Program-made: the position numbers and the translations under genes | Notes under the pieces: model-generated | What the model was told of the DNA's origin: nothing | The model's database searches: none | Seen by the model: the letters and a program-made list of their open reading frames with translations, nothing else | In this document: positions 27,074 to 64,000 of the stretch, one piece after another | Position numbering within the stretch: the first letter of the stretch is position 1 | How the letters are laid out: every line of letters starts with the position of its first letter | From: Candidatus Omnitrophota bacterium | GTDB taxonomy: Bacteria > Omnitrophota > Gorgyraeia > Zapsychrales > Aceulaceae | Direction: 5' to 3' | DNA: 64,000 nucleotides | Assembly (NCBI GenBank): GCA_029564765.1 | Contig: JAKQPK010000019.1 | Span: forward strand, 27,919 to 91,918

Positions 27074-28033
27074 CTAGCTCAATGACGACAAATGCTTAAT
27101 ACGTTTCAACATGTTCGGATGCGTGCTTAAAAGTTCCATCATTTTCTCGGAAGAACTAAGACGGGGATGCGCGTTACGCAAAAGCGCTAACTCCCCAGCA
27201 TCAATTGATCCATTGCGATCATAATCTATCTGGCTTAATTCTTTGATCTCGTTTCGCGCATTTGAAGGGTCATTGACAAAAAATGCCTTCATCCCTTCAG
27301 CTTCCTGCACAGCTTCACGAGGCATACGCGCAGAACCATAGACAAGCTTATAGAGCGCGGAAGCCAAGCTCTCCGGACGGTTCCCAAGCTCTACAGACCC
27401 TTTGTCAGCAAAATACTCGCGGATCCTTGAGGCGTACAGAACGAGAAGATTGGTCAAGAAATAAAAAAGGAACGCTGCCAATCCGATCAATGCTGTATTT
27501 GCGCCATCACGGGAACTTCGGCGATTGCCGAAAAAAAGAAATTGCCAAGCGATCCGATAAAGGATCATCGGAATAATGGAAAGAAGGGTGATGGTCAGAA
27601 CATCCCGATTGCGTAAATGAGAGATTTCATGCCCAATAACAGCTCTAAGTTCCTGATCGTTGAGGAGGCTCACGATCCCTTTCGTTACACATACCCTGCC
27701 ATCGGAGATCCCGCGGCCAAAGGCAAATGCGTTAGGAATAGCCATCTGGGAGATCCCAACTTTGGGCATAGGGATACCGGCACGAGAGGCTTGATCCTCG
27801 ACCATTTGATACAACTTAGGATTTTGTTCACGGGTAACATATTTGACGCCCATGGACCATTCAACGATCTTAGGCCCGATCAGATACTGAAAGAACATTA
27901 GGGCGATCGATATGCCAAGATAAAAATAAAAATTGCTGAGGCCCATGAACTGACCTACCACAACAACAGCCGCATAGATAATGCCGAACAAGATCGTCAT
28001 CATCAACCACAAGCGAAACTGTAACGAGAACAT
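27074..28033 (-). CDS. htpX: M48 zinc metalloprotease HtpX with C-terminal EF-hand calcium-binding loop
   Basis: HEISHLRNRD zincin motif, four TM helices, and a canonical EF-hand loop DYDRNGSIDAGE near the C-terminus. Confidence 0.8.
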   Translation of the reverse strand: MFSLQFRLWLMMTILFGIIYAAVVVVGQFMGLSNFYFYLGISIALMFFQYLIGPKIVEWSMGVKYVTREQNPKLYQMVEDQASRAGIPMPKVGISQMAIPNAFAFGRGISDGRVCVTKGIVSLLNDQELRAVIGHEISHLRNRDVLTITLLSIIPMILYRIAWQFLFFGNRRSSRDGANTALIGLAAFLFYFLTNLLVLYASRIREYFADKGSVELGNRPESLASALYKLVYGSARMPREAVQEAEGMKAFFVNDPSNARNEIKELSQIDYDRNGSIDAGELALLRNAHPRLSSSEKMMELLSTHPNMLKRIKHLSSLS

Positions 28034-28089
28034 AAAACCTCCTTTTCAGAAAAGCCATATAAAAACCAGCGATTTTCAAATGACAATTA

Positions 28090-28129
28090 TAACCAAAAGC
28101 CTGCCAAAGTAAATATTTTTTGGCAGGCT
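28090..28129 (-). terminator. candidate rho-independent terminator after the PNPOx-like gene
   Basis: Inverted repeat AGCCTGCCAAA / TTTGGCAGGCT (28098-28129) followed on the minus transcript by UUUUGGUU. A TATAAT for htpX lies just beyond. Confidence 0.45.
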
Positions 28130-28162
28130 CCTTGATGTTTCTAAACTGTTTCTACAACAGTC

Positions 28163-28570
28163 TCAGATCTTGATCGCTCTATAATCGTAAGTCGCGTGAT
28201 GAAAAACACGCACATTCTTAGGCTTCATACGCAAAACAACCAGCATGGGATCACTAGGAGTCTCATAAAACTTATGCAAGGACAGGACATTGCTCCATAG
28301 TCTTGCTTTATCCTTAAGCGATGTGCTTAACATACACGGCCCCGCGATTCGCACATGCGCTCCGTCGGGTGCTGCAAAACAATACTCCGCGTACGGGACT
28401 TTTTTAAGGTGGTCGATCTTTTCTTGTCCTTCTTCAATACCGCACCAAAGCTCTTTGCCAGCCCAATAAAGAGCGCGCACAGGACGGACACCGACGCGCT
28501 TGCCATCAGACGTCGCCAGCATTCCAAAAGGAACGCTTTTCATAAATTCCTGTAATTGATAGAATGTCAT
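28163..28570 (-). CDS. pyridoxamine 5'-phosphate oxidase-like FMN-binding split-barrel protein
   Basis: PNPOx-like pattern (VPFGMLATSDGKRVGVRPVRALYW...). Start taken at the ATG (28568-28570) directly after the stop of the upstream small ORF. The ORF track extends to 28630. Confidence 0.5.
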   Translation of the reverse strand: MTFYQLQEFMKSVPFGMLATSDGKRVGVRPVRALYWAGKELWCGIEEGQEKIDHLKKVPYAEYCFAAPDGAHVRIAGPCMLSTSLKDKARLWSNVLSLHKFYETPSDPMLVVLRMKPKNVRVFHHATYDYRAIKI

Positions 28571-28574
28571 ATGA

Positions 28575-28763
28575 CTACTTGCAACAGCAGCTTCCGCCAG
28601 CTGCGGTCCTTTTAACCATGCTGGAAACAATAAAGAAAGCTAGCGCAATAAAAATGACTTGATTGTCCGATGCTGGCAAGACATCAAAAGCTGCTGCCAG
28701 TAAAAGCATAATTCCACAGCCCTGCAGAAGGACTGTGATCGTCTCAACAGGTTTTGCCTTCAT
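28575..28763 (-). CDS. small membrane protein (62 aa, two TM helices, C-terminal CCCK)
   Basis: Strong SD AAGGAGGG 6 nt upstream of the ATG. Its stop abuts the PNPOx-like start. Confidence 0.4.
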   Translation of the reverse strand: MKAKPVETITVLLQGCGIMLLLAAAFDVLPASDNQVIFIALAFFIVSSMVKRTAAGGSCCCK

Positions 28764-28834
28764 AATACCCTCCTTTGTATGAGATTCCCCTTAACGCTAT
28801 TTTTTTAAGATAAAAGATCAAGCTGATCATGCCA

Positions 28835-29596
28835 TCACTTTCTTTTTGCTGAAGCCTGTAAATTTACAAAAAATTTCTGAAAACATAGCACGTGAAAATG
28901 CAAATGCTTTCTCTGGTCCTGTCTTCTGAAAAGAAATCCCTGATCATAAAGTTCAGCTAAAGAAAGTTTGTTGTCTTCTTTTTTAGTCAAGATCCCCTGG
29001 GCAGCTCTATGCATCTGTTGAGCTACCGCTTCTCTGCCTAAGGAAAGAAAGATGTTGGCAAGCTCTTCATACGCGAGATATTCATCTTCCCTGGTGCGGG
29101 TTAAAAAGGACATAAAGTCCTCAAGAACGATCTGCGGACCCATGGCCTCCCGGAAATCATCATTCCGAAGAAAACCTGCATACATGCCCACTGTCTTTGG
29201 TAAAACATCTATGGCTTTCTGTAATAAAAAAATCGCTTTTTCAAATTCCTTTTTCTGACTATAGATCATGCCCTGATCCCAATAATAAGAATACTGATTC
29301 GGATTAATAGTAATTGCTTTATCATACATAGCGATCGCTCGATCAAGATCACCTAAATAATAGTAACAAAATCCTTGGTTAGCATACGCATGATCGAATG
29401 GGCCTAAGGTATCTATAAGCTCTTGATAATACTGAATGCACCACCTTAATTCATATGCAGTAAAATCTTGGTTCTCGTTAATTTTATGAACGATTTCTGC
29501 TTCTAAGCGCTTTTTATATGCAATGGAAGAAAGCTTGGCCACCACTGGCTCTTCTCTGAAGAAAACAAAGAAAATCATTAAAACCAGCAAATACAT
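28835..29596 (-). CDS. TPR-repeat protein with N-terminal membrane anchor
   Basis: TPR-like repeats (YYYLGDLDRAIAMYDKAITINPNQ...) after a TM segment. Start ambiguous: ATG at 29674 lacks an SD, ATG at 29596 has a weak GGTGG. Confidence 0.55.
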   Translation of the reverse strand: MYLLVLMIFFVFFREEPVVAKLSSIAYKKRLEAEIVHKINENQDFTAYELRWCIQYYQELIDTLGPFDHAYANQGFCYYYLGDLDRAIAMYDKAITINPNQYSYYWDQGMIYSQKKEFEKAIFLLQKAIDVLPKTVGMYAGFLRNDDFREAMGPQIVLEDFMSFLTRTREDEYLAYEELANIFLSLGREAVAQQMHRAAQGILTKKEDNKLSLAELYDQGFLFRRQDQRKHLHFHVLCFQKFFVNLQASAKRK

Positions 29597-29622
29597 AACA
29601 ATCCACCGATGGCAGAAATGTT

Positions 29623-31845
29623 TCACGGTGCTGTCTCCTTGTTTCGGTGGACTAAAAGAAATATAAGATAGCATAGGAAACCCACATGCATACTAAGAAT
29701 GAAAAAATAGAAAGCTTGCCCTCCAAAAGGCTTGTAATCGAAAATCACCACATTTTCACCAGCAGGCAGAAAGATCCCTTTAAAAGCTAAATTAGCCCTA
29801 TAAAGAGCGACTGCCTTGCCGTTAACGCTTGCCCTCCATCCAGGCTGAAAACTATCTGTATAGACCAAAAACTTATGTTGAAGAAAATGTGTCCGTATTT
29901 TGATCGTATTAACACTAAAAGAAAGTATGTCAAATTGCTCTGAAGGCCCTGTGATGGCAGCTGTGAGGTCCCTCTTTAATGATGTGTCCGAGCTCAAGGA
30001 TAGTTTTCGTAAGCCTTCTTCGCTATTATTGCTTTCTGCGGAAATAAAAGCAAGATTGGTCAGGCTGGGAAATTTGCTTGCCTGTTGAAAATAAAATGAA
30101 TCATCGCTCACAAAACGAATATGATCATAAAGATGAAACTTATATTTTGTATATTGACTTACGGTATGCAAAGGAAAATGCTTCTTAAGATCATAAGACC
30201 ATTTCGGAGGGTATCCTGCCGCTGTCAGAGGAAATCCGGACGCGTCTTTCATTTGGATATATGCGCGATGCGCATCATAAACATCAAAATCCTCCACAAG
30301 CTCAGGACGAGTAAATGAAAACATGGGACTTGTCGACGGATAAGAACAATTTTGAATGATCCTATCCTTGTTAACATCCATATGCTCTAAAGCCTCATGG
30401 AGCTTCCAAAAGACCTCTACAGGCTGGACAACAACACCTGCGATCAGCAGCAAGAACCATATCGGCTTGTAGGAAAGTTTTCCAAGGACAACAAGGCTAA
30501 AAAATAAAGCGCTCAGCAATATCGCGACATGCGTTGTTGCGATCATTGGCTGTCTTCTTAAAAGAAGCCAAATGCCAAGATGAACAAAAAATACCACAGC
30601 TAAACCCCTATAGCGTGGCATGTCCATCTTTTGTTTTAAAATAAATTTCAGTTGCATTGCCATGAAGAGGATCAGCAGCGGACCTATGATCCCATAAAAC
30701 GATCCTACGCCATGGATCATCTTAAAGAATGGAAAATAATAAAAGAAAGATTTGCACAGCGGAGTCTGATCCCCTAAGGCAACAAAAAACAGTACCGTGG
30801 TCAGCAAGAACAAGATAAAGGATTTACGTGTGATACATACCCAAGAGCCGAGAGCCAAAACACAAAAAACAAAGATGGAAAGATAGCGAGGGCCAAAACA
30901 GACCGAGAGATCATCAAGACGAAAGAACATCTGACGAAAAGTTGTTTGGGCCGTCACGCATAAGGCCGCGATCTTTTCATATGCAACATTAATACCGCCC
31001 TGGTAAACATCGTCCCCGGCTATCTTGCGGTCCAAAGCCAGAACATCCCCCGCGCGCATGATGCTATAACCTTTCAGAGAAACTGCCGCGGCTAACCCCA
31101 AAGCTAAACAACAAACGATAACCAAGCGCCAACGATGCTTAAGGAAAAGCCTGATCGCCCGCGCGTTACTAGCCAATTTTTCACGATAAAATACGCAATA
31201 AAGAAAACACACCAGAAAGAAGACAGTCCACCAATAAAAAGGCAAATAGCATCCTACAATGATCATCATCGTAAAAACAAGGCCGACAAAAAAACGCTTT
31301 TCAAAGGATTGCCAGAACCGGACAAGAAAATAAAAGAACCACGCCATGGGCACGCCGATAAAAACGCTGTTGGGACTATTAAAAATGATCATGCTGGTAA
31401 AAGAAAAAAGAGAAACCAGAAATGCTATGTAAGCGACCAGGTTGTCTTTGAGAATAGCTTTAGCAAGGTAATAGAACCCGATCTGGCCAATAAAAAAATA
31501 CCCTAAATAAGTCCACAAAAATGCGAAATAAAAACTAATTCCTATCTTCTGAAAAATAAGGATCAGAAGCCACATCGGGTTAAATGGCCCGAAATATTGG
31601 AATTCTGCAAGCGTTGGAAATCCCCAGAACAAAAAAGGGGTCCAAAGCGCGAAAACACCCTGTGCCAAATTATCTGTAAAAAATTTAACCGTCGCATAAA
31701 AACTACAAGTATCGCCAACGATGGTGATCCTGCCAAGAACGATCGGATAAAAAAGGATGAGCCAAAGGCCAAAAGGAAGAATAAATTTAAGAAAAGAGAC
31801 TCTTAAAAAAAAGAAATGAATGATATGGCGGAGAAAAGAAGACAT
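29623..31845 (-). CDS. large polytopic membrane protein, GT-C fold glycosyltransferase-like (YfhO/ArnT/PMT-like)
   Basis: 740 aa with ~13 N-terminal TM helices followed by a ~250-aa soluble C-terminal domain. This architecture is typical of GT-C (lipid-linked sugar donor) glycosyltransferases. Confidence 0.55.
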   Translation of the reverse strand: MSSFLRHIIHFFFLRVSFLKFILPFGLWLILFYPIVLGRITIVGDTCSFYATVKFFTDNLAQGVFALWTPFLFWGFPTLAEFQYFGPFNPMWLLILIFQKIGISFYFAFLWTYLGYFFIGQIGFYYLAKAILKDNLVAYIAFLVSLFSFTSMIIFNSPNSVFIGVPMAWFFYFLVRFWQSFEKRFFVGLVFTMMIIVGCYLPFYWWTVFFLVCFLYCVFYREKLASNARAIRLFLKHRWRLVIVCCLALGLAAAVSLKGYSIMRAGDVLALDRKIAGDDVYQGGINVAYEKIAALCVTAQTTFRQMFFRLDDLSVCFGPRYLSIFVFCVLALGSWVCITRKSFILFLLTTVLFFVALGDQTPLCKSFFYYFPFFKMIHGVGSFYGIIGPLLILFMAMQLKFILKQKMDMPRYRGLAVVFFVHLGIWLLLRRQPMIATTHVAILLSALFFSLVVLGKLSYKPIWFLLLIAGVVVQPVEVFWKLHEALEHMDVNKDRIIQNCSYPSTSPMFSFTRPELVEDFDVYDAHRAYIQMKDASGFPLTAAGYPPKWSYDLKKHFPLHTVSQYTKYKFHLYDHIRFVSDDSFYFQQASKFPSLTNLAFISAESNNSEEGLRKLSLSSDTSLKRDLTAAITGPSEQFDILSFSVNTIKIRTHFLQHKFLVYTDSFQPGWRASVNGKAVALYRANLAFKGIFLPAGENVVIFDYKPFGGQAFYFFILSMHVGFLCYLIFLLVHRNKETAP

Positions 31846-31873
31846 GCTTGACGCCTCTGAGATTTCTGTGTTG

Positions 31874-32797
31874 CTATTTTTGCTCTACAAAATCCATCGT
31901 GGCAGCCGCGATCTTATTGGCAGAAAGCCCGTAACAATCTTTTAGGGATTCATAATCCGCGTAGGCAACACAAAACTGATCGTTGATCCCTAACCGTTTT
32001 AAGATCGCCTCATCGTGGCTTTGTGCCAACACTTCCGCGACGGCGCTTCCCAGCCCTCCAATAACACTATGATTCTCGATGGTAATAATTTTCTTTGTTT
32101 CACGCGCAGCTTTTAAGATCTGCTTATCGTCAAGGGGCTTAATCGTGTGGAAATTAAGCAAGCGAACAGAGAGGCCTTCCGCGCTTAATTTTTTTACCGC
32201 CATCAAAGCATCCCAAACCAGATCGCCTGTAGCCATAAGTGTCACATCATAGCCTTCCTGCAAGACAACTGCCTTACCGAGCTCGAAAGAATGATCGCCC
32301 TCATAAACAACATGCTCTTTATTTGTTCCTAGCCTTAGATACACCGGCCCTTGAAGGTGGGCGGCAAGTTCCGTTGCCTTACGTGTTTCTTTGGCATCTG
32401 CTGGCGAAAGGATCGTGATATTTGGTAAGACGCGCATAAGCGCTAAGTCTTCGATCGCATGGTGCGTTGGGCCTAGCGTAGAATATTTAAGGCCTGCGCC
32501 AATGCCGACGATCTTGACATTCATCTGCTGCAAGCAAATATCGTTGCGGATCTGTTCATAAGCCCGCATGACAAGAAATGGGATGATCGTATAAATAAAT
32601 GGAATGGCCCCGCACGAAGCCATTCCGGCCGCGACACTTGTCATCGTAGCTTCCGCAATGCCAAAATTCACAAAATTACGCGCAAAATCTCGACGATAAT
32701 CGTCAAAAACAATAGCGCCATTATCCCCTACCATGGAATAGATTTTGGGGTTTTCTTTTGTGAGCTTTGTAATAGTTTCAATATAGGCGGTTCTCAT
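31874..32797 (-). CDS. transketolase, C-terminal subunit (pyrimidine-binding + C-terminal domains)
   Basis: Matches the transketolase Pyr and C-terminal domains. 4-nt overlap with the N-terminal subunit gene. Confidence 0.85.
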   Translation of the reverse strand: MRTAYIETITKLTKENPKIYSMVGDNGAIVFDDYRRDFARNFVNFGIAEATMTSVAAGMASCGAIPFIYTIIPFLVMRAYEQIRNDICLQQMNVKIVGIGAGLKYSTLGPTHHAIEDLALMRVLPNITILSPADAKETRKATELAAHLQGPVYLRLGTNKEHVVYEGDHSFELGKAVVLQEGYDVTLMATGDLVWDALMAVKKLSAEGLSVRLLNFHTIKPLDDKQILKAARETKKIITIENHSVIGGLGSAVAEVLAQSHDEAILKRLGINDQFCVAYADYESLKDCYGLSANKIAAATMDFVEQK

Positions 32798-53837: not shown

Positions 53838-54125
53838 TTATTCAGTAACCGTGATCAAAGAACGTAAGACATCCTCGTTCAAAGCTAATGCTTGTCTGAT
53901 CTTCGCGATCGCGTCTGCTGCCGCTTCCATATTCAACAGATAATAAGTCCCTTCCGTGCGCCGCTTGATCTTGAATATAAACTTTTGTTTCACTAGCCAG
54001 ACTTGGTTGTTGATCACTTTTCCACCAGCTTTCGCGATAGCGTCTGTGACCTTCTTGATGATGGCGTCTTTTTCATCCTTGCTCAGCTGCCCATCAACAA
54101 TGATCGCAATTTCATACTTTTTCAT
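53838..54125 (-). CDS. rpsF: 30S ribosomal protein S6
   Basis: MKKYEIAIIV... S6 fold. rpsF-ssb-rpsR-rplI order conserved. Confidence 0.85.
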   Translation of the reverse strand: MKKYEIAIIVDGQLSKDEKDAIIKKVTDAIAKAGGKVINNQVWLVKQKFIFKIKRRTEGTYYLLNMEAAADAIAKIRQALALNEDVLRSLITVTE

Positions 54126-54721
54126 TGTATTGTTTCCTCTTTCTTGGTCTTTTTGTTAAACTCGGCCATGGTGTGGCTTATTCCCGATACTAAAAATGAT
54201 CGACAGCCGTTGGCTGCGCGATCAATAATTTTAATGAGTTGTTTTTTTTCCGATGCTTTAAATTCTGATAATACAAAATCTGTAACCTGATCTTTGCTTT
54301 TTGGGCTGCCTATGCCGAGTCGCAACCGTGAAATCTCTGAAGTCCCAAGCTGCTCGACAACAGAGGATAGTCCGTTATGTCCTCCGGCACTACCTTTGGC
54401 GCGAAAGCGTAATTCCCCAAAAGCAAGCTGAAAGTCATCGCACACGATCAATATATTTTCATGCGCGATCTTCTTTTCAGTAACAAAAGCTTTGACGGCT
54501 ACCCCTGAAACATTCATATAGGTCGTTGGCAAAAGAAGATAGACTTTTTTTTCATCGACCACGCCTTGTGCTAAGAGGCCATGATATTTACTGCTGCGCA
54601 CAAAATCCATATGAAAAAGATCAGCAAAATGTCGCGCGATCAAAAAACCCGCATTGTGCCTTGTCCATGTATATTCTTTGCCGGGATTGCCCAGCCCTAC
54701 TAGAAGATAATCGCGCAACAA
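54122..54721 (-). CDS. pth: peptidyl-tRNA hydrolase
   Basis: LLVGLGNPGKEY...HNAGF motif. Confidence 0.9.
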   Translation of the reverse strand: MLRDYLLVGLGNPGKEYTWTRHNAGFLIARHFADLFHMDFVRSSKYHGLLAQGVVDEKKVYLLLPTTYMNVSGVAVKAFVTEKKIAHENILIVCDDFQLAFGELRFRAKGSAGGHNGLSSVVEQLGTSEISRLRLGIGSPKSKDQVTDFVLSEFKASEKKQLIKIIDRAANGCRSFLVSGISHTMAEFNKKTKKEETIQ

Positions 54722-54738
54722 TGAACAAACCTTTGATA

Positions 54739-55437
54739 TTATCCTTTAGTTTCTTTGGCTTTCGCAGCTGCTTGACCTTCAGCAGCAGGCTCTTCCTTCT
54801 TCTTCTCTTTAGTGACCTCAGGCTCTTTTGCCGTTTGCTCTTCCGCTGCCGTCGCTTCTACTTCTTTCATCGGCGGCACAACGGTCACGACAACAGCGTC
54901 AGGGTCATGGTGCGCAACGACACCTTCTGGCAACTTCAGATCCCTGACAAAGACCGCTTGATTGATCTCCAAATGTGAAACGTCAACATCAATATGTTGC
55001 GGAATCTGTGTCGGCAAGCAAACGATCTTTAATTCCCACAGTTGATGATCAACAGACCCACCATCCTTCTTGACGCCGACAGGCTCACCCTGAACAGCAA
55101 TAGGAACCTTGACCTCGATCTTTTCCGTTAAAGAAATACGCGCAAAGTCAATATGCGCGATCGCGCTGCTCACGGGGTTATGCTGCGTCTCTTTGATGAC
55201 CGCAGGAAAATCTTGGAGCTTCTTTTCTTGATCAAGCACAGTGATGTGGAAAATAATGCTTTCCCCGCGATGCCCACGGGTCACGCGCTCAAAACTTCTT
55301 CGATCAACAGACACTGTTACCGGCTTCTGCTTTCCGCCATAAACAATGGCCGGGATCCCATCGGATCTGCGTACTTTTTTTGAGCCTGATTTCCCTAGCT
55401 CGGCTCGAAGCTGAACATCCAATTTAATTTCTTCCAT
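54739..55437 (-). CDS. rplY: 50S ribosomal protein L25 / general stress protein Ctc
   Basis: L25 beta-barrel N-domain plus Ctc-type C-domain and E/K-rich tail. Position upstream of pth. Confidence 0.85.
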   Translation of the reverse strand: MEEIKLDVQLRAELGKSGSKKVRRSDGIPAIVYGGKQKPVTVSVDRRSFERVTRGHRGESIIFHITVLDQEKKLQDFPAVIKETQHNPVSSAIAHIDFARISLTEKIEVKVPIAVQGEPVGVKKDGGSVDHQLWELKIVCLPTQIPQHIDVDVSHLEINQAVFVRDLKLPEGVVAHHDPDAVVVTVVPPMKEVEATAAEEQTAKEPEVTKEKKKEEPAAEGQAAAKAKETKG

Positions 55438-55488
55438 TTTACCTTATAACCTGCTTTCTTGTTATGATTGTTTCATCTTTTTAATATC

Positions 55489-56427
55489 TTAAAAAAACAA
55501 ACAGCTAATCGACTTCTCATCATGAATACGCTTGATCGCTTCCGCCAGCAAAGGAGCGATGCTTAAAGTTTGAACTTTGGGATTTTTTTCAGGATCTGGC
55601 AAGGGAATACTGTTCGTGATAACAACTTCTTTGAGGGATTTGGAATTTTGGATCTTGACAAGCGCGTCCCCTGAAAGCACGCCATGGCTGACCGCCGCGT
55701 AAACATCACGGGCTCCACGACGTTTTAGCTCTTCGATCGCTTCCATCAAGGAACTGCCGGTCGCAATAATATCGTCCACAAGAACGACATTTTTATCTTT
55801 GACTTCACCTAAAATATGCATGACCTCTGTTTTTTCTGGGCTATCGCGTCTTTTATCAACGATCGCGAGGCCTGCGGAAAGTTTTCTGGCGTAAGCTCTC
55901 GCCATGCGGATACCGCCCACGTCTGGAGAAACGATCACTAAATCTTTAAATTGTTTATCAAGAAAATATTCGCAGATCGTGTTGATCGCGTACAAATGGT
56001 CAACAGGAATATCGAAAAAACCCTGGATCTGGCTCGCGTGCAAGTCCATAGTCAAAACACGGCTCGCCCCAGCAGAAGTAATAAGATTCGCAACAAGCTT
56101 TGCCGTGATCGGAACACGTGGCTGATCTTTGCGATCTTGACGGGCATATCCATAATATGGGATAACGGCTGTTACACGCCTTGCGGATGCCCGCTTCACA
56201 GCATCGATCAAGATCAGAAGTTCCATGAAATTATCATTAACTGGACGACATGTTGACTGAACAATAAAAACATCCTTACCGCGGACATTGCCCTCAACCT
56301 TAACACGGATCTCTCCCTCGCTAAAACGGCTTACAAGAGCTTCGGTCAGATTAATACCTAGCTGATCACAAATTTCTGTAGCTAACTTTGGATTTGCATT
56401 ACCGGTAATGATAGATATTTCGCTCAT
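55489..56427 (-). CDS. prs: ribose-phosphate pyrophosphokinase
   Basis: PRPP-binding motif VLVDDIIATGSS. Confidence 0.9.
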   Translation of the reverse strand: MSEISIITGNANPKLATEICDQLGINLTEALVSRFSEGEIRVKVEGNVRGKDVFIVQSTCRPVNDNFMELLILIDAVKRASARRVTAVIPYYGYARQDRKDQPRVPITAKLVANLITSAGASRVLTMDLHASQIQGFFDIPVDHLYAINTICEYFLDKQFKDLVIVSPDVGGIRMARAYARKLSAGLAIVDKRRDSPEKTEVMHILGEVKDKNVVLVDDIIATGSSLMEAIEELKRRGARDVYAAVSHGVLSGDALVKIQNSKSLKEVVITNSIPLPDPEKNPKVQTLSIAPLLAEAIKRIHDEKSISCLFF

Positions 56428-57683
56428 AATGCTTTCTTTCTTTTGATAATTTTTCCAGGAACGCCGACAACGACCTGACCCTTAAGGATCCTTTGGCCCT
56501 TGGTAACAACGCACCCAGCCCCTGTCAAAGCGCTAGCCCCGATGCTGACTGGGGCCACCAAGATCGAGTCCGACCCAATAAATGCTCCATTGGCAATTGT
56601 GGTCTTATTTTTGTTTTTGCCATCATAGTTGGCTGTCACGACACCAGCGCCAATATTCACATTTTTTCCAATAGTCGCATCCCCAATAAAGCTAAAATGC
56701 TTCATCAAACTTTTTTCTCCAAGAGTTGACCGAGAGATCTCAGCAAAATTGCCGACCTGTGCATCATCTTTGATGCGCGTTCTTGGGCGCACATGGCAAA
56801 ACGGCCCTATGAAACATCGCTTTCCAATGACAACATCTTTCTCAATGACCGTGCACGGACGGATCACGCTATCGCGTCCGATCTTCGCTCCTGCGTCAAT
56901 ATACGTCGTAGACGGATCAACAATGCTGACCCCATCCGCCATAAATTTCTCCAGAATACGTTGGCGCATGATCGCATCAGCCGCAGATAGATCTTTTCGC
57001 GTGTTAATTCCCAACCCCTCGCGTGCATCGGACAATCTACTGGCAGCAACTATTTTCCCATCTCTTTTCAAAATAGCGATAATGTCCGTAAGATAATACT
57101 CTTTTTTCTTTTTATTCAACGCTATTCGGCTCAGTCCCAACGACAAGTCTTTAGCGCGAAAACAATAAACACCTGTATTGATCTCCTGGATATCCTTTTC
57201 TTGAGGGCTTGCGTCTTTTTCCTCGCGGATCGCGACCACCTGCCCCTTATCATCGCGAACGATACGGCCATACTGCGCCGCGTCAGGAACAATAGCTGTC
57301 AAAATAGTGCAGGCAGCCCTCTGTTTACGATGCATCGTCAATAGACGCTTGACGCTTTCTTTCTTTAAAAGCGGTGTGTCCGCGCATACGATGACCACAT
57401 CGCCTGAATACTTCTTGAGCTCAGGGACAACGGCACGGATCGCGTCAGCAGTACCCAAAAGTTTCTTTTGATGAACAATCTTAACGCGATGGTCAAGATG
57501 ACAGCAAAGCTTCTGTGCTTGATGCCCAACGACAACATAGATCAAAGAACTGATCTCTCTGGCCATGCCTAAAACATGATCTACCATTGGCTGGCCGCAG
57601 ACAGGATGCAAAACCTTTGGCAAGTCGGATCGCATCCGCGTGCCTTTTCCCGCTGCTAAAACGATCGTTCGCACTTGCTCCAT
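56424..57683 (-). CDS. glmU: bifunctional UDP-GlcNAc pyrophosphorylase / GlcN-1-P N-acetyltransferase
   Basis: N-terminal LAAGKGTRM nucleotidyltransferase plus C-terminal hexapeptide acetyltransferase. Confidence 0.9.
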   Translation of the reverse strand: MEQVRTIVLAAGKGTRMRSDLPKVLHPVCGQPMVDHVLGMAREISSLIYVVVGHQAQKLCCHLDHRVKIVHQKKLLGTADAIRAVVPELKKYSGDVVIVCADTPLLKKESVKRLLTMHRKQRAACTILTAIVPDAAQYGRIVRDDKGQVVAIREEKDASPQEKDIQEINTGVYCFRAKDLSLGLSRIALNKKKKEYYLTDIIAILKRDGKIVAASRLSDAREGLGINTRKDLSAADAIMRQRILEKFMADGVSIVDPSTTYIDAGAKIGRDSVIRPCTVIEKDVVIGKRCFIGPFCHVRPRTRIKDDAQVGNFAEISRSTLGEKSLMKHFSFIGDATIGKNVNIGAGVVTANYDGKNKNKTTIANGAFIGSDSILVAPVSIGASALTGAGCVVTKGQRILKGQVVVGVPGKIIKRKKAL

Positions 57684-57694
57684 AACTTACTTTC

Positions 57695-58081
57695 TTATGC
57701 TGCCTTTAAAACAAGTCTTGCTGTATAAAATCCAAAAAAAACTGCCATCAGTCCTAAAAAATTTGTCGCTACGATATTCACTGCTGCGGCCCTCAATTCG
57801 CCATCGCGCAAAAGACCAAGGTTCTCCAAAGCAAAACTTGAGAATGTCGTATAGCCACCTAACAGGCCAATAAAAATGAACAGTCGAGCACCTGTGGCGA
57901 TATTGATCTTCTCGCAAAGTCCCCACAAAAAACCAATGGCCAAAGATCCCGTTATGTTCACCATCAAAGTGCCAATGGGAAAGATCCCTTGAGAAAAACG
58001 GTGATCTATATTGGAAACCATATAACGTAATATGGTTCCTATCCCCCCGCCAAATCCGATCCAAAGAATTTTCGCCATCAT
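57695..58081 (-). CDS. crcB: fluoride ion channel CrcB/Fluc
   Basis: GFGGGIGTILRY and LxVNITGSLAIGFL motifs. Start set at MMAKILW, preceded by GAGGAGGG SD (the ORF track starts 10 codons upstream). Confidence 0.8.
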   Translation of the reverse strand: MMAKILWIGFGGGIGTILRYMVSNIDHRFSQGIFPIGTLMVNITGSLAIGFLWGLCEKINIATGARLFIFIGLLGGYTTFSSFALENLGLLRDGELRAAAVNIVATNFLGLMAVFFGFYTARLVLKAA

Positions 58082-58157
58082 AATTAACCCTCCTCTTGCT
58101 GTAGGAGTCATCAGCCCTTCAAGGACGGTTAACGGCGAACTCCATCACCAGATCAAG

Positions 58158-58228
58158 CTGCCCAGCCAGGACTCGAACCTGGAAAAGCAGATCCAAATTC
58201 TGCTGTGTTACCATTACACCACCGGGCA
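58158..58228 (-). tRNA. tRNA-Gln (anticodon TTG)
   Basis: Manual cloverleaf fold on the minus strand. Acceptor TGCCCGG/CTGGGCA with U1-A72 and discriminator G73. D-arm GTGT-AATGGTA-ACAC, anticodon stem GCAGA/TCTGC, loop ATTTGGA (anticodon UUG). T-arm CCAGG-TTCGAGT-CCTGG. 71 nt, no encoded CCA. Coordinates +/-1. Confidence 0.75.
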
Positions 58229-58234
58229 ATATTC

Positions 58235-58657
58235 TTATAAAACGTCATCATCAGCCAAGTCGCCAGGCTCATGAGGCGATGATTCGCCTTTGGCTACTTG
58301 TTGCTCGTACGCTTCTAAAACTTTATTTTGCAGATATTCCCTGAATTCTTTTGTGACAGGATGCGCGATATCACGGTGGTCCGCCTTAGCATCTCGAGGC
58401 TGCTTGAGGGCGTCCTGAGCTGGAAGCTTTGCCCCGCAATGACTACAAAATTTCGATCCTGCGTCGTTCTTGAAATTACATTTCGGACAACTAAACTTCA
58501 TTTTCCTCGACGGCATCGCCATGAAAGAACCGTTGGCGGAATTGATCACCTTAATGTTACGCACAACAAAGCAATGATCGAACGTGACCGTCGCATAGGC
58601 TTTAAGCTTCTTATCCTGACCGTCTTTTAGAAATACTCGGATCTCTGTGATTTCCAT
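58235..58657 (-). CDS. spoVG: SpoVG-family protein with a ~40-aa zinc-ribbon insertion
   Basis: MEITEIRVFL...TVTFDHCFVVRNIKVI...FMAMPSRK and RDIAHPVTKEFREYL match SpoVG. The segment CPKCNFKNDAGSKFCSHCG (C-x2-C...C-x2-C) is inserted in the loop. Confidence 0.8.
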   Translation of the reverse strand: MEITEIRVFLKDGQDKKLKAYATVTFDHCFVVRNIKVINSANGSFMAMPSRKMKFSCPKCNFKNDAGSKFCSHCGAKLPAQDALKQPRDAKADHRDIAHPVTKEFREYLQNKVLEAYEQQVAKGESSPHEPGDLADDDVL

Positions 58658-58683
58658 AAGCTGCGCTCCTTGTTGATTGTCCC

Positions 58684-59550
58684 CTACAGCGTTCGCACCA
58701 CAACAACATACGCATAGTGCCGGCCTAATTTTTCAGCAATGACCTGGGCCTTCTTTCGCGTTGGGACCAAGCCAAAAATGGATGGCCCACTCCCCGAGAA
58801 ACAGACATCAAGCCCTGAAATACGCTGAATATTGTTCTTTATGGTACGAAGTTGCGGATGGACGCGCACAATAGCTGCCTCCAAATCATTCGACAGGAAC
58901 TGACTCACCTTTCGGAGATCTTTTTTCCTCAATTCGTGAGTTAGGATATTAGCATTATCATTTCTTTTTGTCAACTTTCTTTTGACCGCTCTAAACACCT
59001 CTCCTGAATAAACTTTCAGGCGTGGCGTAATGATCACGTGCCACAATTTTTTGTTGATCCTGACCTTCCGGATCCTGTCCCCGCGCCCTGTTCCTATACA
59101 AAAATTATATTTATATATAAATAAAGGGACATCGCTGCCCAAGCGCTTAGCATACGCGATCAACGTTTTAGGGGGTAAATGCAGGTGCCAAAGCTTATTA
59201 AGCCCCAAAAGCGTGCTTGCGGCATTACTTGAGCCTCCCGCTAAGCCCGCGGCTACGGGGATACGCTTTGTAAGGTGGATATCAACACCCTGAGAAATGC
59301 CAAAATCCATCTGAAGCATCCTGGCAGCTTTGTAGATCAAATTCTTGGGCCCACAAGGAATGGACGGGTGGTCGCAGAAGATGCGGATCTTTCCGGAAGA
59401 CGTCAAAACAAAACGCAAATCATCATACAAAGATATTTTTTCAAACAGCGTAGAAAGATCGTGGTATCCATCAGGGCGCTTGTTGAGGACTTTTAAACAA
59501 AGATTGATCTTGGCTGGAGAGCGAAGAAAGATGCTTTTCATAAAACACAA
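58684..59550 (-). CDS. ispE: 4-diphosphocytidyl-2-C-methyl-D-erythritol kinase
   Basis: GHMP kinase motifs (PAKINLCLKV, PVAAGLAGGSSNAA). Confidence 0.85.
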   Translation of the reverse strand: MCFMKSIFLRSPAKINLCLKVLNKRPDGYHDLSTLFEKISLYDDLRFVLTSSGKIRIFCDHPSIPCGPKNLIYKAARMLQMDFGISQGVDIHLTKRIPVAAGLAGGSSNAASTLLGLNKLWHLHLPPKTLIAYAKRLGSDVPLFIYKYNFCIGTGRGDRIRKVRINKKLWHVIITPRLKVYSGEVFRAVKRKLTKRNDNANILTHELRKKDLRKVSQFLSNDLEAAIVRVHPQLRTIKNNIQRISGLDVCFSGSGPSIFGLVPTRKKAQVIAEKLGRHYAYVVVVRTL

Positions 59551-59553
59551 ACG

Positions 59554-60561
59554 CTAAGGTTGGTTCAAAAGAGGCAATTTTCCGCTATGTTCAACGGCTT
59601 TTATTTTATTAAGAATATCTTCTTGGCCAGGCAGCATCTCCAAGGACTTCTCCCAATGTTTTAGTGCCGCTGCCGCATCATTCATCCGAAGGTACGTATC
59701 CCCCAAATGATCATAAATAATAGGATCCTGCATGAACTTTAAAGCGCGTTCTAGGAAAAGACGCGCTTTTTCATAATCACCTTTTTTATAATACGCCCAT
59801 CCCAAACTATCCAGATAAGCCCCATTCTCAGGGTCGATATCTAAAGCGCGCTGGACCAACGCCACGGCTTCATCCAAATTAATTCCATCTTCCGCATACA
59901 TGTACCCTAAAGAATTCAAACTGCCGTCATTATTGGGATCCAGATCAATGGACTTCTGAAAACAAGCAGCAGCTTTATCCCGGTCAGGAAGCTCAATATA
60001 GAGTGAGCCCAATATAGAATACAGCTCCGGGCTGGGGCCATTCATTAAAAGCGCTTTTTCAAATTCGTCGATCGCCTGCTTGATCTTTCCCTGAGAAAAA
60101 TATAGCTGACCAAGAAAAGCTGGAATATCCCCGCTATCCGGATTTTGTTCAGCGATCCGCCTTAAAACAAACTCATACTCCTTGTCCGCCTTATCATCAT
60201 TGGATTGAGAAGAGTAAATGATCGCAAGCAGATAGTGAGCTTCGACATCTTTAGGGTTAAGCTCCGCAGCTTTTTTAAGTTCATCGACTGCTTTATCTAA
60301 CTGGCCTAGCTTGCCATAGCCGATGCCAAGCCGCAAACGGATCGTATAGTTATCCGGCTCAAGGGCGGCGGCTTTCTGATATTCCTCCAGCCCCTGATCT
60401 TCTGTTTCATTCCACTCGTTCAAAAGACCCATCGTATAATGGGCTAGGGCTTCCGCCTTGATGTTCCTTTCAGCGGAAAAGCAGGGCGAAGATAAGAAAA
60501 AAACCCCTCCAAGCCAAAAGGCGCACGCCTTTAAGAGTGTTGTTCGAAAATGACTATTCAT
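59554..60561 (-). CDS. secreted TPR-repeat protein
   Basis: Signal peptide MNSHFRTTLLKACAFWLGGVFFLSSPCFSA followed by ~8 TPR repeats. The ORF track starts at an upstream TTG (60618). Confidence 0.6.
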   Translation of the reverse strand: MNSHFRTTLLKACAFWLGGVFFLSSPCFSAERNIKAEALAHYTMGLLNEWNETEDQGLEEYQKAAALEPDNYTIRLRLGIGYGKLGQLDKAVDELKKAAELNPKDVEAHYLLAIIYSSQSNDDKADKEYEFVLRRIAEQNPDSGDIPAFLGQLYFSQGKIKQAIDEFEKALLMNGPSPELYSILGSLYIELPDRDKAAACFQKSIDLDPNNDGSLNSLGYMYAEDGINLDEAVALVQRALDIDPENGAYLDSLGWAYYKKGDYEKARLFLERALKFMQDPIIYDHLGDTYLRMNDAAAALKHWEKSLEMLPGQEDILNKIKAVEHSGKLPLLNQP

Positions 60562-60675
60562 GAGAGATGATTGTTTTCGCAAAGAAAGCTCGATCACTTT
60601 TCGTATGCTTGCTACCAAGCAAACTGACGATCTCAGCGCATGACGCCCTTAGGCGTCATGCGCTAAAACACTGTC

Positions 60676-60774
60676 CTAGTGATCTCTTTTCTTCAAGTGA
60701 CGCATTGCCTTTCGTCGTTTCTTGCGCTTATGCGTCGAGATCTTCCTGCGTTTTCTTTTTTTACCACAAGGCAT
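60676..60774 (-). CDS. putative 32-aa extremely basic small protein
   Basis: My translation MPCGKKRKRRKISTHKRKKRRKAMRHLKKRDH (20 of 32 residues are K/R/H). ATG is 14 nt after a weak AAGGG. It lies in a 185-bp gap between the TPR gene and hisG. Confidence 0.35.
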   Translation of the reverse strand: MPCGKKRKRRKISTHKRKKRRKAMRHLKKRDH

Positions 60775-60802
60775 AATGTTAACCCTTTCGTTATAAGATC
60801 GC

Positions 60803-61678
60803 TTAATAAATAAGTTTATTTAACGCGTACTCAATGATTCCTTGGGCGCCAGCATCCTTAAGCTGCGGAATAAGCATCCGCACGGTACCCTCGCTGATCA
60901 CTGTTTCAATAGCAACCCATCCGTCTTTAGCCAGCGGAGCAATCGTTGGATTTTGCAAAGCCGGCAGAACTTTAAGGATCTTACCAAGATCTTTTTCTTT
61001 GGCGTTCATTTTAAGGCCAACCATATTTTCCGCCTCAAGCGCCCCTCGAAGTAACATAATGATCTGGTCCATTTTCTTACACTTCCAAGGATCTTTACAA
61101 GCCTTATTATTAGCGATGAACTGGGTAGTGGATTCACAGACCGTTGAGACAATACGAAGCTTGTTCGCACGTAAGCTACTACCGGTCTCCGTCAATTCAA
61201 CGACCGCGTCCACTAAGCCGGAAGCAACCTTGGCCTCTGTTGCCCCCCAGCTAAACTCGACCTCCGCCTTGACTTTATTTTTCTTGAGATATTTCTCAGT
61301 GGCTTTGACCAACTCTGTTGCGATACGCTTGCCCTTCAGATCTTTGACGGTCTTCATTGACGACTCTTCCGGAACAGCCAAAACCCAGCGCACTTTAGAA
61401 GCGCTTTGTTTTGCATACAATAGGTCCGCTAGATGCGCAACGCGAGAACCATTCTCTTCGATCCAATCTGCGCCAGTGATGCCACAGTCCAAAGCCTCAT
61501 CTTCAACATAGCGCGACATTTCTTGAGCACGCAAGAGCACGACCTCAATCTCGTCATCGTCGATCATGGGAAAATACGAACGGCTTGAAACACGGATCTT
61601 AAACCCGGCTTTCTCGAACAAGCTGAACGTTGCCTCTTGAAGGCTTCCTTTGGGCAGGCCTAATTTAAGCTTCTTCAT
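60803..61678 (-). CDS. hisG: ATP phosphoribosyltransferase, long form with C-terminal regulatory domain
   Basis: HisG catalytic domains ([10 protein letters not shown]...) plus ~75-aa C-terminal ACT-like domain. Confidence 0.85.
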
Positions 61679-61739
61679 ATATGTTTCCTTTTAAAATATT
61701 AATAATGGTATTCATTATAACAGAAAAACAAGAAACCGC

Positions 61740-61768
61740 ATTATACATTTGTCAAAATTGATTGTAAA
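61740..61768 (-). promoter_or_regulatory. candidate hisG promoter (TTTACA-N17-TATAAT)
   Basis: Minus-strand reading TTTACA ATCAATTTTGACAAATG TATAAT, ~60 nt upstream of the hisG ATG. AAAGGAAAC SD-like sequence before the start. Confidence 0.4.
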
Positions 61769-61926
61769 GAGAAGAATAAAACGAGCTCTTAAGCTCTAGG
61801 TCCTAAACCCTAAATCCTAGACAGATCTAAATGTTCAAATGTCAAATTTCCGAAACAAAACGTTTTGGCGTTTATCCTTAGGATTTTAAATTTGTTTAGA
61901 GTTTCGGATTTCGTGCTTCGAATTTC

Positions 61927-64000
61927 TTAATTAAGGCTTACTTTTTCCGTCTCGCGGGCAGGATCGAGACTGCGGGCAGCCCTTAACTGCTTTTCTTCTT
62001 CAGGGGACAATCCTAAAAGCGGAAAAATATTAATGATGGGCGTGATGCTGATGATGACCGGTGCCAGGCCATCGATGTGGCTCCAATCGATGTTTTGGAA
62101 TGTTGGAGCCGTATCTAGTATCTGGTCGTTAGTATTTAGCGGTTTGCCATCACTAAATACTAAATACCCTTCACTATTCACTGGTCTCTTTATTTTCACA
62201 TTCATATTATCAGCGTTAAAATCGATCCCGCCTTTTGTTTTTTCCACCCCACCTTGTGGTAAGCTTACCGAACCATCCCCGGCTTGCGCTTCTTTAAGCT
62301 TCCGATAAATATCCGGATAATAAAGATAGAGATACCTTGGGCTTCCGGCGAATAACTCTGCTTCATTATCGATAAGTTCTTCAAACCGCTCAAAATCCAT
62401 GCTCCAAAATTCATCAATTTCATGAAGATTGTAATGCTTTTGAACTTGATCCATTTCTTCTTCGGAAAGTTGATAAGCATACGCTGTTGTAAATTCTTTA
62501 ATTTCCTCGCGCTTAATCCCGTTGGCTCCTGAAATCTCTAACAATCTTTCCTTGTTGATATGGATCCCGGCCTCTTCGTGGGCTTCCCTCAAGGCAGCCT
62601 CCATTGGGGATTCTCCCTCGTCAAGGTGCCCGCTCACTGAAACCTGTAATTTGCCGGGAGAGGTTCTCTTCTTTGCGCTTCTTTTTTGAAGCAACAGACG
62701 GCCTTGGGGGTCAATAAAATAAATGTGCGCGGTCGCGTGCCACAAGCCTTGACGATGAGCCTCCTCATAGCTAGCAACCTCATCTTTAAAACTTCCATTT
62801 TCATTTACAAGTCTTACCGGAGCGCTTTCTTGATCGTTTGTAGTTATTCCTTCTTTGCCGCCTTTTATGATTCTGATACCTTGCAACATAGCCTTAGAAG
62901 AAAATTTTTCTCCTTCCGTCTGTCCAAAGCCCCACGCCCCATCGGAAATTGGACTGGACATCATTGGCGAAAGAGCTTGATCATCAAGCGATTGGTTCGT
63001 AAAAACATAGATCGCTTTGTCTTTGTCCGTGTTCCAGATAAAATCTGTCGCTGGATAATCTTCGGGTGGATTTTCAAAAAGATCAAGATAGTGAAATCCT
63101 ACATTTTCAAGACCGGCTCTAAATCTTTCAAACGTTCCTGTATCAAAACGCGCTAAGCGCAGAAAAAGGATCGCGTTTTGCGCTGACAATAATCTGATCT
63201 CCGCGAAATAATTTTCCATGTCTCCATCTGGGTCAGGGGCGTTCATAAAGATCCAATCAAATTTCTTGTCCGCATGCCGGGCCACAATATCAGGAGCGTC
63301 TCCCTGATCGACTTCCTCCATCACAAAAACATCTGTGCCGTCTATTTTTTCTGTCGCAGAAAAATTCATCTTGCGAAGTTTTTCCACATCAAGAGCATAA
63401 ACAGATTCTTCATCAAGGATCGGTCGGTACCTCTCACTAAAAAGATCCTGCATAAACTGACCATCGCTACCAAAATCCAAAACCCTCACTTTGTCTTTCG
63501 GATTACGCATATAGGATGTAGAAAGGAAACTAAACGTATCTGTCGTTGGGATCTTGCCGAACATAAACGCGTTTAGATCTACACGACCGCGCGACGCGTT
63601 GACCGCTGAGCTGACGGGCACAATCTTTAGAGCCTCTTGCCGAATGGCTTCTTCCGATGAAAGTTCTTTATCCATAACAGCTTTCACTTGCGGCGAAAGA
63701 TCATAAAGCGTGGCTAGAGGTCTGCTCGTATGAAAAATAACCGGGACCTCAGGGAATCGCCTTGCCATTTCTTGCGCAAGCCAATCCCCGCCCTTGCTTG
63801 GCATTTCAAAGTCGGTCATGACCAGATGGACATTTTGGTCAGCGAGCTTGCGCAAAGCTTCTTCAGGCCCGCTTGCTTCAATGACCTCATAATCTTTAAT
63901 TAACGCCTTTTTTAGAAATGCTCTCCAGCGCTCTCGATTATCAACGACAAGAACCTTGGGGCGAGACTCCGCGACAGGATCCTTGCCTGGCTTGGCGAAT
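61927..64000 (-). CDS. response-regulator receiver (REC) - methyltransferase-like domain - Nudix hydrolase fusion protein, N-terminus beyond the window edge
   Basis: The frame stays open to position 64000. My translation of 63856-64000 gives ...KVLVVDNRERWRAFLKKALIKDYEVIEASGPEEALRKLADQNVHLVMTDFEMP, a REC domain with DD-like and phospho-acceptor Asp motifs. The middle has the Rossmann-MTase motif I VLDFGSDGQF. The C-terminal part has the Nudix box GHLDEGESPMEAALREAHEEAGI. Confidence 0.6.
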   Translation of the reverse strand, partial: FAKPGKDPVAESRPKVLVVDNRERWRAFLKKALIKDYEVIEASGPEEALRKLADQNVHLVMTDFEMPSKGGDWLAQEMARRFPEVPVIFHTSRPLATLYDLSPQVKAVMDKELSSEEAIRQEALKIVPVSSAVNASRGRVDLNAFMFGKIPTTDTFSFLSTSYMRNPKDKVRVLDFGSDGQFMQDLFSERYRPILDEESVYALDVEKLRKMNFSATEKIDGTDVFVMEEVDQGDAPDIVARHADKKFDWIFMNAPDPDGDMENYFAEIRLLSAQNAILFLRLARFDTGTFERFRAGLENVGFHYLDLFENPPEDYPATDFIWNTDKDKAIYVFTNQSLDDQALSPMMSSPISDGAWGFGQTEGEKFSSKAMLQGIRIIKGGKEGITTNDQESAPVRLVNENGSFKDEVASYEEAHRQGLWHATAHIYFIDPQGRLLLQKRSAKKRTSPGKLQVSVSGHLDEGESPMEAALREAHEEAGIHINKERLLEISGANGIKREEIKEFTTAYAYQLSEEEMDQVQKHYNLHEIDEFWSMDFERFEELIDNEAELFAGSPRYLYLYYPDIYRKLKEAQAGDGSVSLPQGGVEKTKGGIDFNADNMNVKIKRPVNSEGYLVFSDGKPLNTNDQILDTAPTFQNIDWSHIDGLAPVIISITPIINIFPLLGLSPEEEKQLRAARSLDPARETEKVSLN

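Follow-up and report, generated by a model that had tools for sequence, protein, structure and literature searches.

The window analysed here is a 64,000-nucleotide stretch of DNA from a Candidatus Omnitrophota bacterium (contig JAKQPK010000019.1), and the gene in question lies at its far end (61927-64000, minus strand), where a receiver, a methyltransferase-like module and a Nudix hydrolase domain are encoded in a single open reading frame (ORF). We consider it likely that this frame is the C-terminal part of a modular protein, some 3,150 residues long, from Omnitrophota that is probably exported through the Sec pathway, and that its receiver works independently of phosphorylation, as an interaction or conformational module and not as a two-component input gating the Nudix domain. 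The first-pass annotation had read the gene as a response regulator with phosphorylation-controlled outputs. This reading does not survive, given an internal receiver, an Asn in its acidic pair, a Nudix segment that can be swapped, and signal peptides in the family.

The architecture that we propose has three parts. A Sec signal and an N-terminal domain of about 320 residues (the N-domain) would be followed by highly variable, independently folding cargo, and finally by a conserved C-terminal tail with the pattern GGID[LF]...GFxPVIINIxP...LG. The protein would be exported through Sec, the tail may be a sorting, secretion or docking signal, and the modules would work as individual enzymes or binding units beyond the producer's own cytoplasm, either on its envelope or within a host or prey cell.

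The reading frame and its modules

The minus-strand frame with codons starting at 63999, 63996 and so on is open for 690 codons, from the edge of the window at 64000 to a TAA stop at 61927-61929. Residue numbers for this 690-residue part follow that frame, with codon 1 at 63999. The protein encoded by the neighbouring hisG gene was used as a look-up and gave four contigs from independent assemblies (L007 to L010: two from JGI, NCBI GCA_035358335.1, and one from Logan), which are 100% identical to positions 54001-64000 of the window, over 10 kb. In all four the ORF continues for another 6.4 kb upstream (at least 2,134 codons) and is open to the contig end. The gene therefore does run off the window, as first thought, and no stop or frameshift parts the receiver from the rest. 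L007:2-8476 holds 2,824 codons of the same ORF. The NCBI record of the gene is HOD11832.1, a 'NUDIX domain-containing protein' of Candidatus Omnitrophota bacterium, and the identical NCBI protein is 2,779 residues long. A word-index protein search, with the 690-residue fragment or with the tail alone, returned almost nothing and missed this identical protein; it is seemingly blind to very long proteins.

The features of the gene within the window are as follows.

61927..64000, minus strand: C-terminal 690 codons and TAA stop of the long ORF (open frame; identity with L007 to L010; N-domain profile)
63961..63999, minus strand: linker FAKPGKDPVAESR, following a PrmA-like class I methyltransferase module that lies outside the window (translations of L007 and L001)
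63625..63960, minus strand: receiver (REC), residues 14-125 (Pfam PF00072; phmmer; MAFFT alignment with CheY)
63601..63612, minus strand: junction SSAV joining receiver and middle module (SS[SAP][IV] motif)
62980..63591, minus strand: middle module, residues 137-340, predicted class I methyltransferase-like Rossmann fold (AlphaFold2, Foldseek, homologues)
62947..62958, minus strand: junction SSPI, bordering the variable cassette on its left (SS[SAP][IV] motif; comparison with L001)
62260..62940, minus strand: variable cassette, residues 354-580, containing the Nudix domain (blastn and BLASTP against L001)
62383..62739, minus strand: Nudix hydrolase domain of the YfcD/DR_0079/IDI-like type (Pfam PF00293; PDB relatives)
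61930..62244, minus strand: conserved C-terminal tail, residues 586-690 (tail profile; profile search; metagenome loci)
62215-62232 and 62008-62064, minus strand: tail motifs GGIDFN and APVIISITPIINIFPLLGL, the tail closing with a charged end ...DPARETEKVSLN

The cargo of the protein begins with XRE-type helix-turn-helix (HTH) repeats (HTH_3/HTH_31). These are followed by a NagB and PIG-L-like region (NCBIfam NF002557, E 1.7e-25) and a PrmA/MTS-type class I methyltransferase (Pfam PrmA/MTS/Methyltransf_31 at residues 1968-2060 of the L007 ORF), which ends just before the receiver; then come the pseudo-receiver, the methyltransferase-like module and the YfcD-like Nudix domain. With these modules upstream of it, the receiver is internal and not N-terminal, at about residue 2150 in an ORF that counts 2,824 residues or more.

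The receiver is recognised by Pfam Response_reg at residues 16-93 (41.7 bits, against a cutoff of 30.2), and phmmer comparison with hybrid kinases extends the match to residue 113, in β5. The first-pass annotation was thus right to see a full receiver upstream of the TTG start, although not in its reach to 64000: the domain begins at about 63960, and the 13 codons next to the window edge are linker after the PrmA-like module. The TTG at 63855 is merely the first start seen by a mechanical ORF finder. It falls inside helix 2 of the receiver, and a start there would therefore cut the domain in half.

Alignment by MAFFT with CheY and five other receivers places the active-site positions at D20-N21, D63, T91 and K111. 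D63 is the phosphorylation-site position. The acidic pair is Asp-Asn, so that the second acid, a direct metal ligand, is replaced by N21. By definition, the loss of any of the five catalytic residues makes a receiver a pseudo-receiver, and in that class the second acid (DD2) is commonly replaced by Asn (bioRxiv 10.1101/2025.06.23.661182). Because its second metal-binding acid is Asn, the receiver is, judged from its sequence, a pseudo-receiver by this published definition. The same Asp-Asn pair is present in the receiver of the orthologue L001 (described below) and in a receiver embedded at about residues 1687-1771 of the family protein L100, a tail-bearing ORF of 2,521 residues. Another family protein, L105, has two receivers, both with Asp-Asp.

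The protein shares with pseudo-receivers and atypical response regulators (bioRxiv 10.1101/2025.06.23.661182) the PF00072 fold and the loss of one of the five catalytic residues. It differs from them in that the receiver is an internal module of a probably exported protein of several thousand residues, with no dedicated output. Among the features of a canonical response regulator, PF00072 is present, while the full set of five catalytic residues and an N-terminal receiver with a conserved output are not. Since these two defining features are missing, the gene lies outside the canonical class. The first-pass annotation had suggested looking for a cognate histidine kinase; phmmer with five hybrid kinases detected neither a histidine kinase (HisKA/HATPase_c) nor another receiver anywhere in the 64 kb, and a partner could be encoded elsewhere. 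Classical cytoplasmic phosphotransfer seems unlikely for this receiver, because the intact N-termini in the family begin with apparent Sec-type signal peptides.

The middle module (residues 137-340) has no significant sequence match in Pfam or the PDB. Methyltransf_24 comes under its cutoff (E 0.012-0.016), and no Pfam methyltransferase model reaches its own. AlphaFold2, run with 7 homologous sequences, gave a model with a predicted local distance difference test (pLDDT) of 89.5 and a predicted template modelling score (pTM) of 0.88, and this predicted model has the seven-stranded Rossmann-like fold of methyltransferases. Foldseek against the PDB returned class I S-adenosylmethionine (SAM) methyltransferases for all of the top 50 matches, weakly in each case (E from 3e-4, template modelling score (TM) 0.3-0.47, 9-20% identity). 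They include RlmI-like proteins (3vse/1wxw), UbiG (5dpm) and the SAM sensor SAMTOR (7vkk), and the predicted fold matches this class only.

Structure prediction, which had been named as a possible refutation, thus supports a methyltransferase-like fold for the middle region, as the first-pass annotation proposed. The VLDFGSDGQF that it named as motif I is a degenerate form of the Gly-rich SAM loop, which reads LDMVSEGQF and FDLASSGEF in homologues and departs from the motif I pattern E/DxGxGxG; in this, in the low TM and in the want of a Pfam match at cutoff, the module differs from known class I SAM methyltransferases. The family does conserve IF(M/L)NAP, which is NPPY-like and equivalent to motif IV, together with DYPxTDFI. 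For the module itself, a divergent enzyme, a SAM sensor and a pseudo-enzyme are all conceivable.

When 1.84 billion representatives were searched exhaustively with phmmer, the middle module had eight matches: five real homologue clusters, one fragment and two repeat artefacts. The last two (P0023 and P0024) were rejected as low-complexity or repeat matches. The five real homologues are all found in long proteins of 982-4,275 residues, and the fragment, P0025, is 171 residues long and contains the module. In P0019 to P0022 the module occurs without any receiver, and in P0020 and P0025 it directly abuts the tail. P0020 is a complete family member of 1,272 residues, consisting of an N-domain, the same middle module and a tail. 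Neither the middle module nor close relatives of the Nudix domain were found in other tail proteins among the 120 tail-bearing ORFs listed.

It is worth adding that one protein with this module, P0001 (982 residues), comes from a metagenome-assembled genome (MAG) named in NCBI as 'Oscillospiraceae bacterium'. Its middle module is 58% identical, and it has similar HTH-like repeats and junction motifs. The Firmicutes label could reflect a mis-binned Omnitrophota contig or horizontal transfer.

The Nudix domain was called bona fide by the first-pass annotation, and this is confirmed. Pfam NUDIX PF00293 matches residues 421-539 with 56.7 bits (cutoff 21.1). The Nudix box at residues 457-479 (nt 62563-62631) reads G-HLDEG-E-SPMEAAL-RE-A-H-EE-A-G-I, an exact fit to GX5EX7REUXEEXGU. 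The closest relatives in the PDB are E. coli YfcD (2fkb; 33 bits, E 6e-7) and D. radiodurans DR_0079 (1q27), followed by isopentenyl diphosphate (IPP) isomerases. With YfcD, DR_0079 and type 1 IPP isomerase (IDI) the domain shares the N-terminal extension common to the IDI-like clade and a complete Nudix box; it differs in its low identity to them and in having Ser in place of the IDI Cys. Assignment as a type 1 IPP isomerase was considered and rejected: the segment containing the catalytic Cys is SVSGHL here, against (T/S)N(S/T)xCxHP, and the score for NCBIfam PRK03759 is 55 bits, well short of its cutoff of 127. Since the Cys is replaced by Ser and the glutamates of REUXEE are intact, the sequence points to a YfcD-like hydrolase and not an isomerase.

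The Nudix segment was compared with L001, a syntenic contig of a related MAG that encodes an orthologue and carries the same hisG, TPR, ispE and spoVG genes downstream. The two proteins are 88% identical over a stretch that takes in the PrmA-like module, the receiver and the middle module and runs to the sequence ...SSP(I/V)xD; 2 residues past SSPI the similarity stops. From there the 227-residue Nudix segment is replaced in L001 by an unrelated segment of 635 residues with no Pfam match. Similarity returns in the C-terminal tail.

A homologous tail-bearing gene is also found directly upstream of hisG in L033, L034, L041, L091 and L101, where HisG is 74-84% identical. As cargo these five genes have HEAT repeats, a canonical Methyltransf_11 or no module that can be recognised, and all five lack both a receiver and a Nudix domain. 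On the sequences compared, the Nudix segment is a replaceable cassette. The swap in L001, the five hisG-adjacent genes without either domain, and the receiver-free middle modules together lead to the conclusion that, as far as sequence comparison can tell, the pairing of receiver and Nudix is not a conserved functional unit. The best explanation takes the Nudix domain to be a cargo cassette that was exchanged recently.

Conserved ends and variable cargo

The tail of the protein (residues 586-676) matches a hidden Markov model (HMM) of the tail with 62.3 bits (E 3.5e-19). A profile built from five tails retrieved 46 proteins, and those named by organism (three of three) are from Candidatus Omnitrophota. 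A hand-made degenerate DNA pattern for GFxPVIINIxP located at least 120 tail loci in metagenomes (L015 to L134). Among the 120 loci listed, the core motif lies in every case 7-58 residues before the end of the reading frame, usually after GGID[LF], and the tail-bearing ORFs are up to 2,917 residues long.

The tail was rejected as a folded domain, because an AlphaFold2 prediction from 35 tails shows nothing compact (pTM 0.30). It was likewise rejected as a transmembrane anchor, since the hydrophobic stretch (Kyte-Doolittle peak 1.95 in this protein) contains charged residues in relatives, for example PVILDIHP.

The N-domain, of about 320 residues, follows a hydrophobic leader with a site of the form AxA↓(Q/D/E)(D/E)F.LP.PG. 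It ends in IYQxYLxAFKKGxYNYIKEExDPxTQxxIPRKYFSGG, the final part being IPRKYF(S/A)GG. Among the loci listed, 42 of the 58 tail ORFs of at least 700 residues have an N-domain, starting at residue 18-55. Relatives with intact N-termini have what appear to be Sec-type signal peptides, with short h-regions followed by AxA↓(Q/D/E)(D/E)F.

An HMM of 28 N-domains has 322 positions, of which 283-322 match residues 2-41 of the target ORF (34.6 bits). The protein thus carries both family ends: the tail within 60 residues of the stop, and the end of the N-domain, represented by the last 40 positions of the profile. Since only these last positions are matched, about 320 residues are missing at the N-terminus, and the full length is estimated from the profile at close to 3,150 residues. 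An exact-DNA scan of the metagenome collection for the 5' end, using the initial bases that L007 and L008 share, gave no match. The cluster members P0015, P0017 and P0018, which were looked at for the same purpose, are internal fragments.

The ends of all four contigs, L007 to L010, fall in the conserved N-domain and are no more than about 100 nt apart, which suggests that there are many near-identical copies of the N-domain per genome and that the family is systematically under-assembled; the common break point is plausibly due to the multi-copy N-domain.

Neither conserved end matches Pfam, NCBIfam or the PDB, and in the literature that could be searched, neither a full-text search for the tail motifs nor a search for an Omnitrophota sorting signal found anything relevant. 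Genes with an N-domain and a tail are often in tandem: a second N-domain ORF lies nearby in 13 of the 120 loci listed, for example at L054:882-10712. In 12 of the 120 there is a protein of about 640 residues with multiple transmembrane helices nearby.

Between the conserved ends the cargo is very diverse. Thirty-eight tail ORFs contain 68 different Pfam families, including HEAT, HATPase_c, GNAT, phosphoglucomutase (PGM), methyltransferases, Response_reg, PGK, aminotransferase, WD40, SNF2 and HAD. A short motif, SS[S/A/P][I/V], recurs along the target protein, with five copies in 2,824 residues against 0.27 expected (residues 85, 680, 1852, 2264 and 2482 of the L007 ORF). The copies lie at apparent module boundaries, including that between receiver and middle module and that between middle module and Nudix. 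Across the 120 tail-bearing ORFs listed, the motif is about 4-fold enriched. It could be a signal for processing, for glycosylation or for recombination at junctions. Many tails are preceded by SSP[V/I] or D.AM about 10 residues before GGIDL.

Alternative readings and related systems

Several points weigh against the proposal of an exported protein with a phosphorylation-independent receiver. The signal peptides were judged by eye and not by SignalP, and that of the target itself is deduced from family members only, its true N-terminus being beyond all contigs. No machinery recognising the tail has been identified. The match of the middle module to the methyltransferase-like fold is weak (TM <0.5). 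The receiver retains D63, T91 and K111, and residual or unusual phosphorylation chemistry may be possible. Lastly, the cargo is of cytoplasmic enzyme types (SAM-dependent methyltransferases, Nudix, receiver and HTH, with PGK and kinases in relatives), which need cofactors scarce outside cells, so that a site on the cytoplasmic face or inside a host fits better than the periplasm.

This last point leads to the strongest alternative, a membrane-tethered cytoplasmic multi-enzyme scaffold. Here the N-terminal hydrophobic segment would be an uncleaved anchor, and the cargo would sit on the cytoplasmic face with access to SAM, nucleotides and phosphodonors. The overwhelmingly cytoplasmic character of the cargo is in keeping with this, as is the fact that no transmembrane helix is evident in the visible 2,824 residues except for the hydrophobic stretch of the tail. 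We nevertheless think it unlikely, because the short h-regions and the consistent cleavage-site pattern in the family are typical of cleaved Sec signals, and a conserved signal at the extreme C-terminus is something seen more typically in proteins that are sorted or secreted.

In bacteria, receivers are commonly fused to enzymatic outputs. A phospho-accepting receiver that allosterically controls the methyltransferase-like and Nudix domains would make a two-component-regulated nucleotide hydrolase inside a larger protein. The three retained catalytic residues and the normal length of the (βα)5 fold speak for such a mechanism, and HATPase_c domains in other family members mean that kinase-like partners exist within the family. 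We regard it as improbable, and somewhat more so than the scaffold. Besides the Asn at the second metal-binding position, a junction motif stands between receiver and middle module, the L001 orthologue keeps both of these without the Nudix domain, and other hisG-adjacent members lack receiver and Nudix alike. The middle module does without a receiver in P0019 to P0022, no kinase was detected in the 64 kb, and signal peptides occur in the family. Had the gene been a response regulator, it would have offered a new signalling output; that reading fails.

An artefact, in the form of a chimeric contig or a pseudogene that joins unrelated genes in one frame, deserves almost no credence: all assemblies do break at the same upstream point and one family locus (L103) has an in-frame stop in its tail, but four independent assemblies are identical over 10 kb with 2,824 codons open, L001 keeps the same frame across a different cassette, and the multi-copy N-domain explains the common break point. 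The stop in L103 (PVIINI-stop-P) falls inside the most conserved motif of a 1,399-residue ORF, and could mark a pseudogene, a sequencing error or recoding.

We return to the exported modular protein and its closest known relatives. Two studies describe long or giant Omnitrophota proteins, termed 'Archaeovorins' in one (West-Roberts et al. 2023, bioRxiv 10.1101/2023.11.21.568195) and placed in a 'multi-enzyme metabolic cluster' class in the other (Nielsen and Lui 2026, bioRxiv 10.64898/2026.06.07.730766). Such proteins string together methyltransferases, NUDIX, GNAT, HATPase_c and receivers; PF00072 occurs in 105 of 916 long Omnitrophota proteins, and 94% of the long proteins carry a signal peptide or transmembrane helices (bioRxiv 10.1101/2023.11.21.568195; 10.64898/2026.06.07.730766). 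The first-pass annotation did not recognise the architecture as described; long Omnitrophota proteins with receiver, methyltransferase and NUDIX modules among their domains had in fact been reported, and the gene is a smaller relative of these long modular proteins.

The likeness lies in the same phylum, a single polypeptide tiled with unrelated Pfam domains, common signal peptides and contigs that break inside genes. One difference is size, about 3 thousand residues here against thresholds of 10 thousand and 30 thousand residues (gene >90 kb) there. The protein has the Omnitrophota origin and the mixed enzymes of an 'Archaeovorin', methyltransferases and NUDIX included, and falls short of its >30,000 residues. 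By Pfam and hydrophobicity, the visible 2,824 residues also have none of the SecA-like, C39/S8 peptidase, dockerin or transmembrane-rich regions of that type. The conserved N-domain and the GGIDL...PVIINI tail are absent from the passages of both papers on termini, signal peptides and secretion, which were not searched for the motif strings. The conserved ends are, in our view, the part worth following up.

Other systems offer looser parallels. MARTX and polymorphic toxins are large secreted proteins in which conserved ends enclose central effector modules that are swapped between close relatives. The resemblance is at most one of function, and the target has in addition a recurrent short motif between modules. 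Unlike MARTX, no RTX GGxGxD repeats, cysteine protease domain or type I secretion system genes were seen (Pfam), and the family has an apparent Sec signal; delivery into another cell in the MARTX manner would apply to the target by analogy only. Cargo of the Bacteroidota type IX secretion system (PMC12618676, PMC11285876) likewise combines an N-terminal Sec signal with a conserved C-terminal signal on diverse cargo. There the C-terminal domain is a folded Ig-like β-sandwich, whereas the tail of this family, for which no compact fold is predicted, shows no sequence similarity to it and comes from another phylum.

One can hypothesise that the gene belongs to an Omnitrophota-specific cargo-export system, so far undescribed, in which the two ends bracket freely exchangeable modules of cytoplasmic type (pseudo-receivers, Nudix, methyltransferases, kinases, HTH) that are sorted to the surface or delivered into a host or prey cell, and perhaps released at SS[A/P/S][I/V]. 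We put this forward tentatively, and would sooner expect it to be wrong than right. If true, it would represent a strategy like that of MARTX or polymorphic effectors in ultra-small episymbiotic bacteria.

This gene is a mid-sized, tractable example of the long modular Omnitrophota proteins. Both family ends are conserved and easily modelled, cargo turns over at a fixed chromosomal site, and there is a junction motif, so that the question of their function could become testable. HMMs of the ends can be used to count the family in each genome, and phylogenetic profiling to seek the machinery that reads the tail. A member of 3 thousand residues, or P0020 with its 1.3 thousand, is expressible, unlike proteins of 30-150 thousand residues.

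Neighbouring features in the window

Downstream of the long gene there is a weak terminator-like hairpin (61783-61796, minus strand), and upstream of hisG a near-consensus sigma-70-like promoter, TTTACA-17-TATAAT (11/12; 61740-61768, minus strand). Both are consensus matches only; together they suggest that the long gene and hisG are separate transcription units.

Further along, a protein of the SpoVG family (58235-58657, minus strand) ends in a zinc-ribbon-like CxxC...CxxC extension together with an acidic tail, and the protein is conserved in L001 and in all the identical contigs. The stretch 58095-58228 (minus strand) holds a fluoride riboswitch (Rfam RF01734, 54.7 bits), located immediately upstream of a crcB fluoride-channel ORF (57695-58111, minus strand), and a tRNA at 58158-58228 that abuts the riboswitch.

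Nearly all the ORFs of at least 200 residues are on the minus strand, and the few on the plus strand lie within or overlap longer minus-strand ORFs. The GC skew is negative throughout the window; at 28001-32000 the GC content goes down to 0.41 and the AT skew is +0.17.

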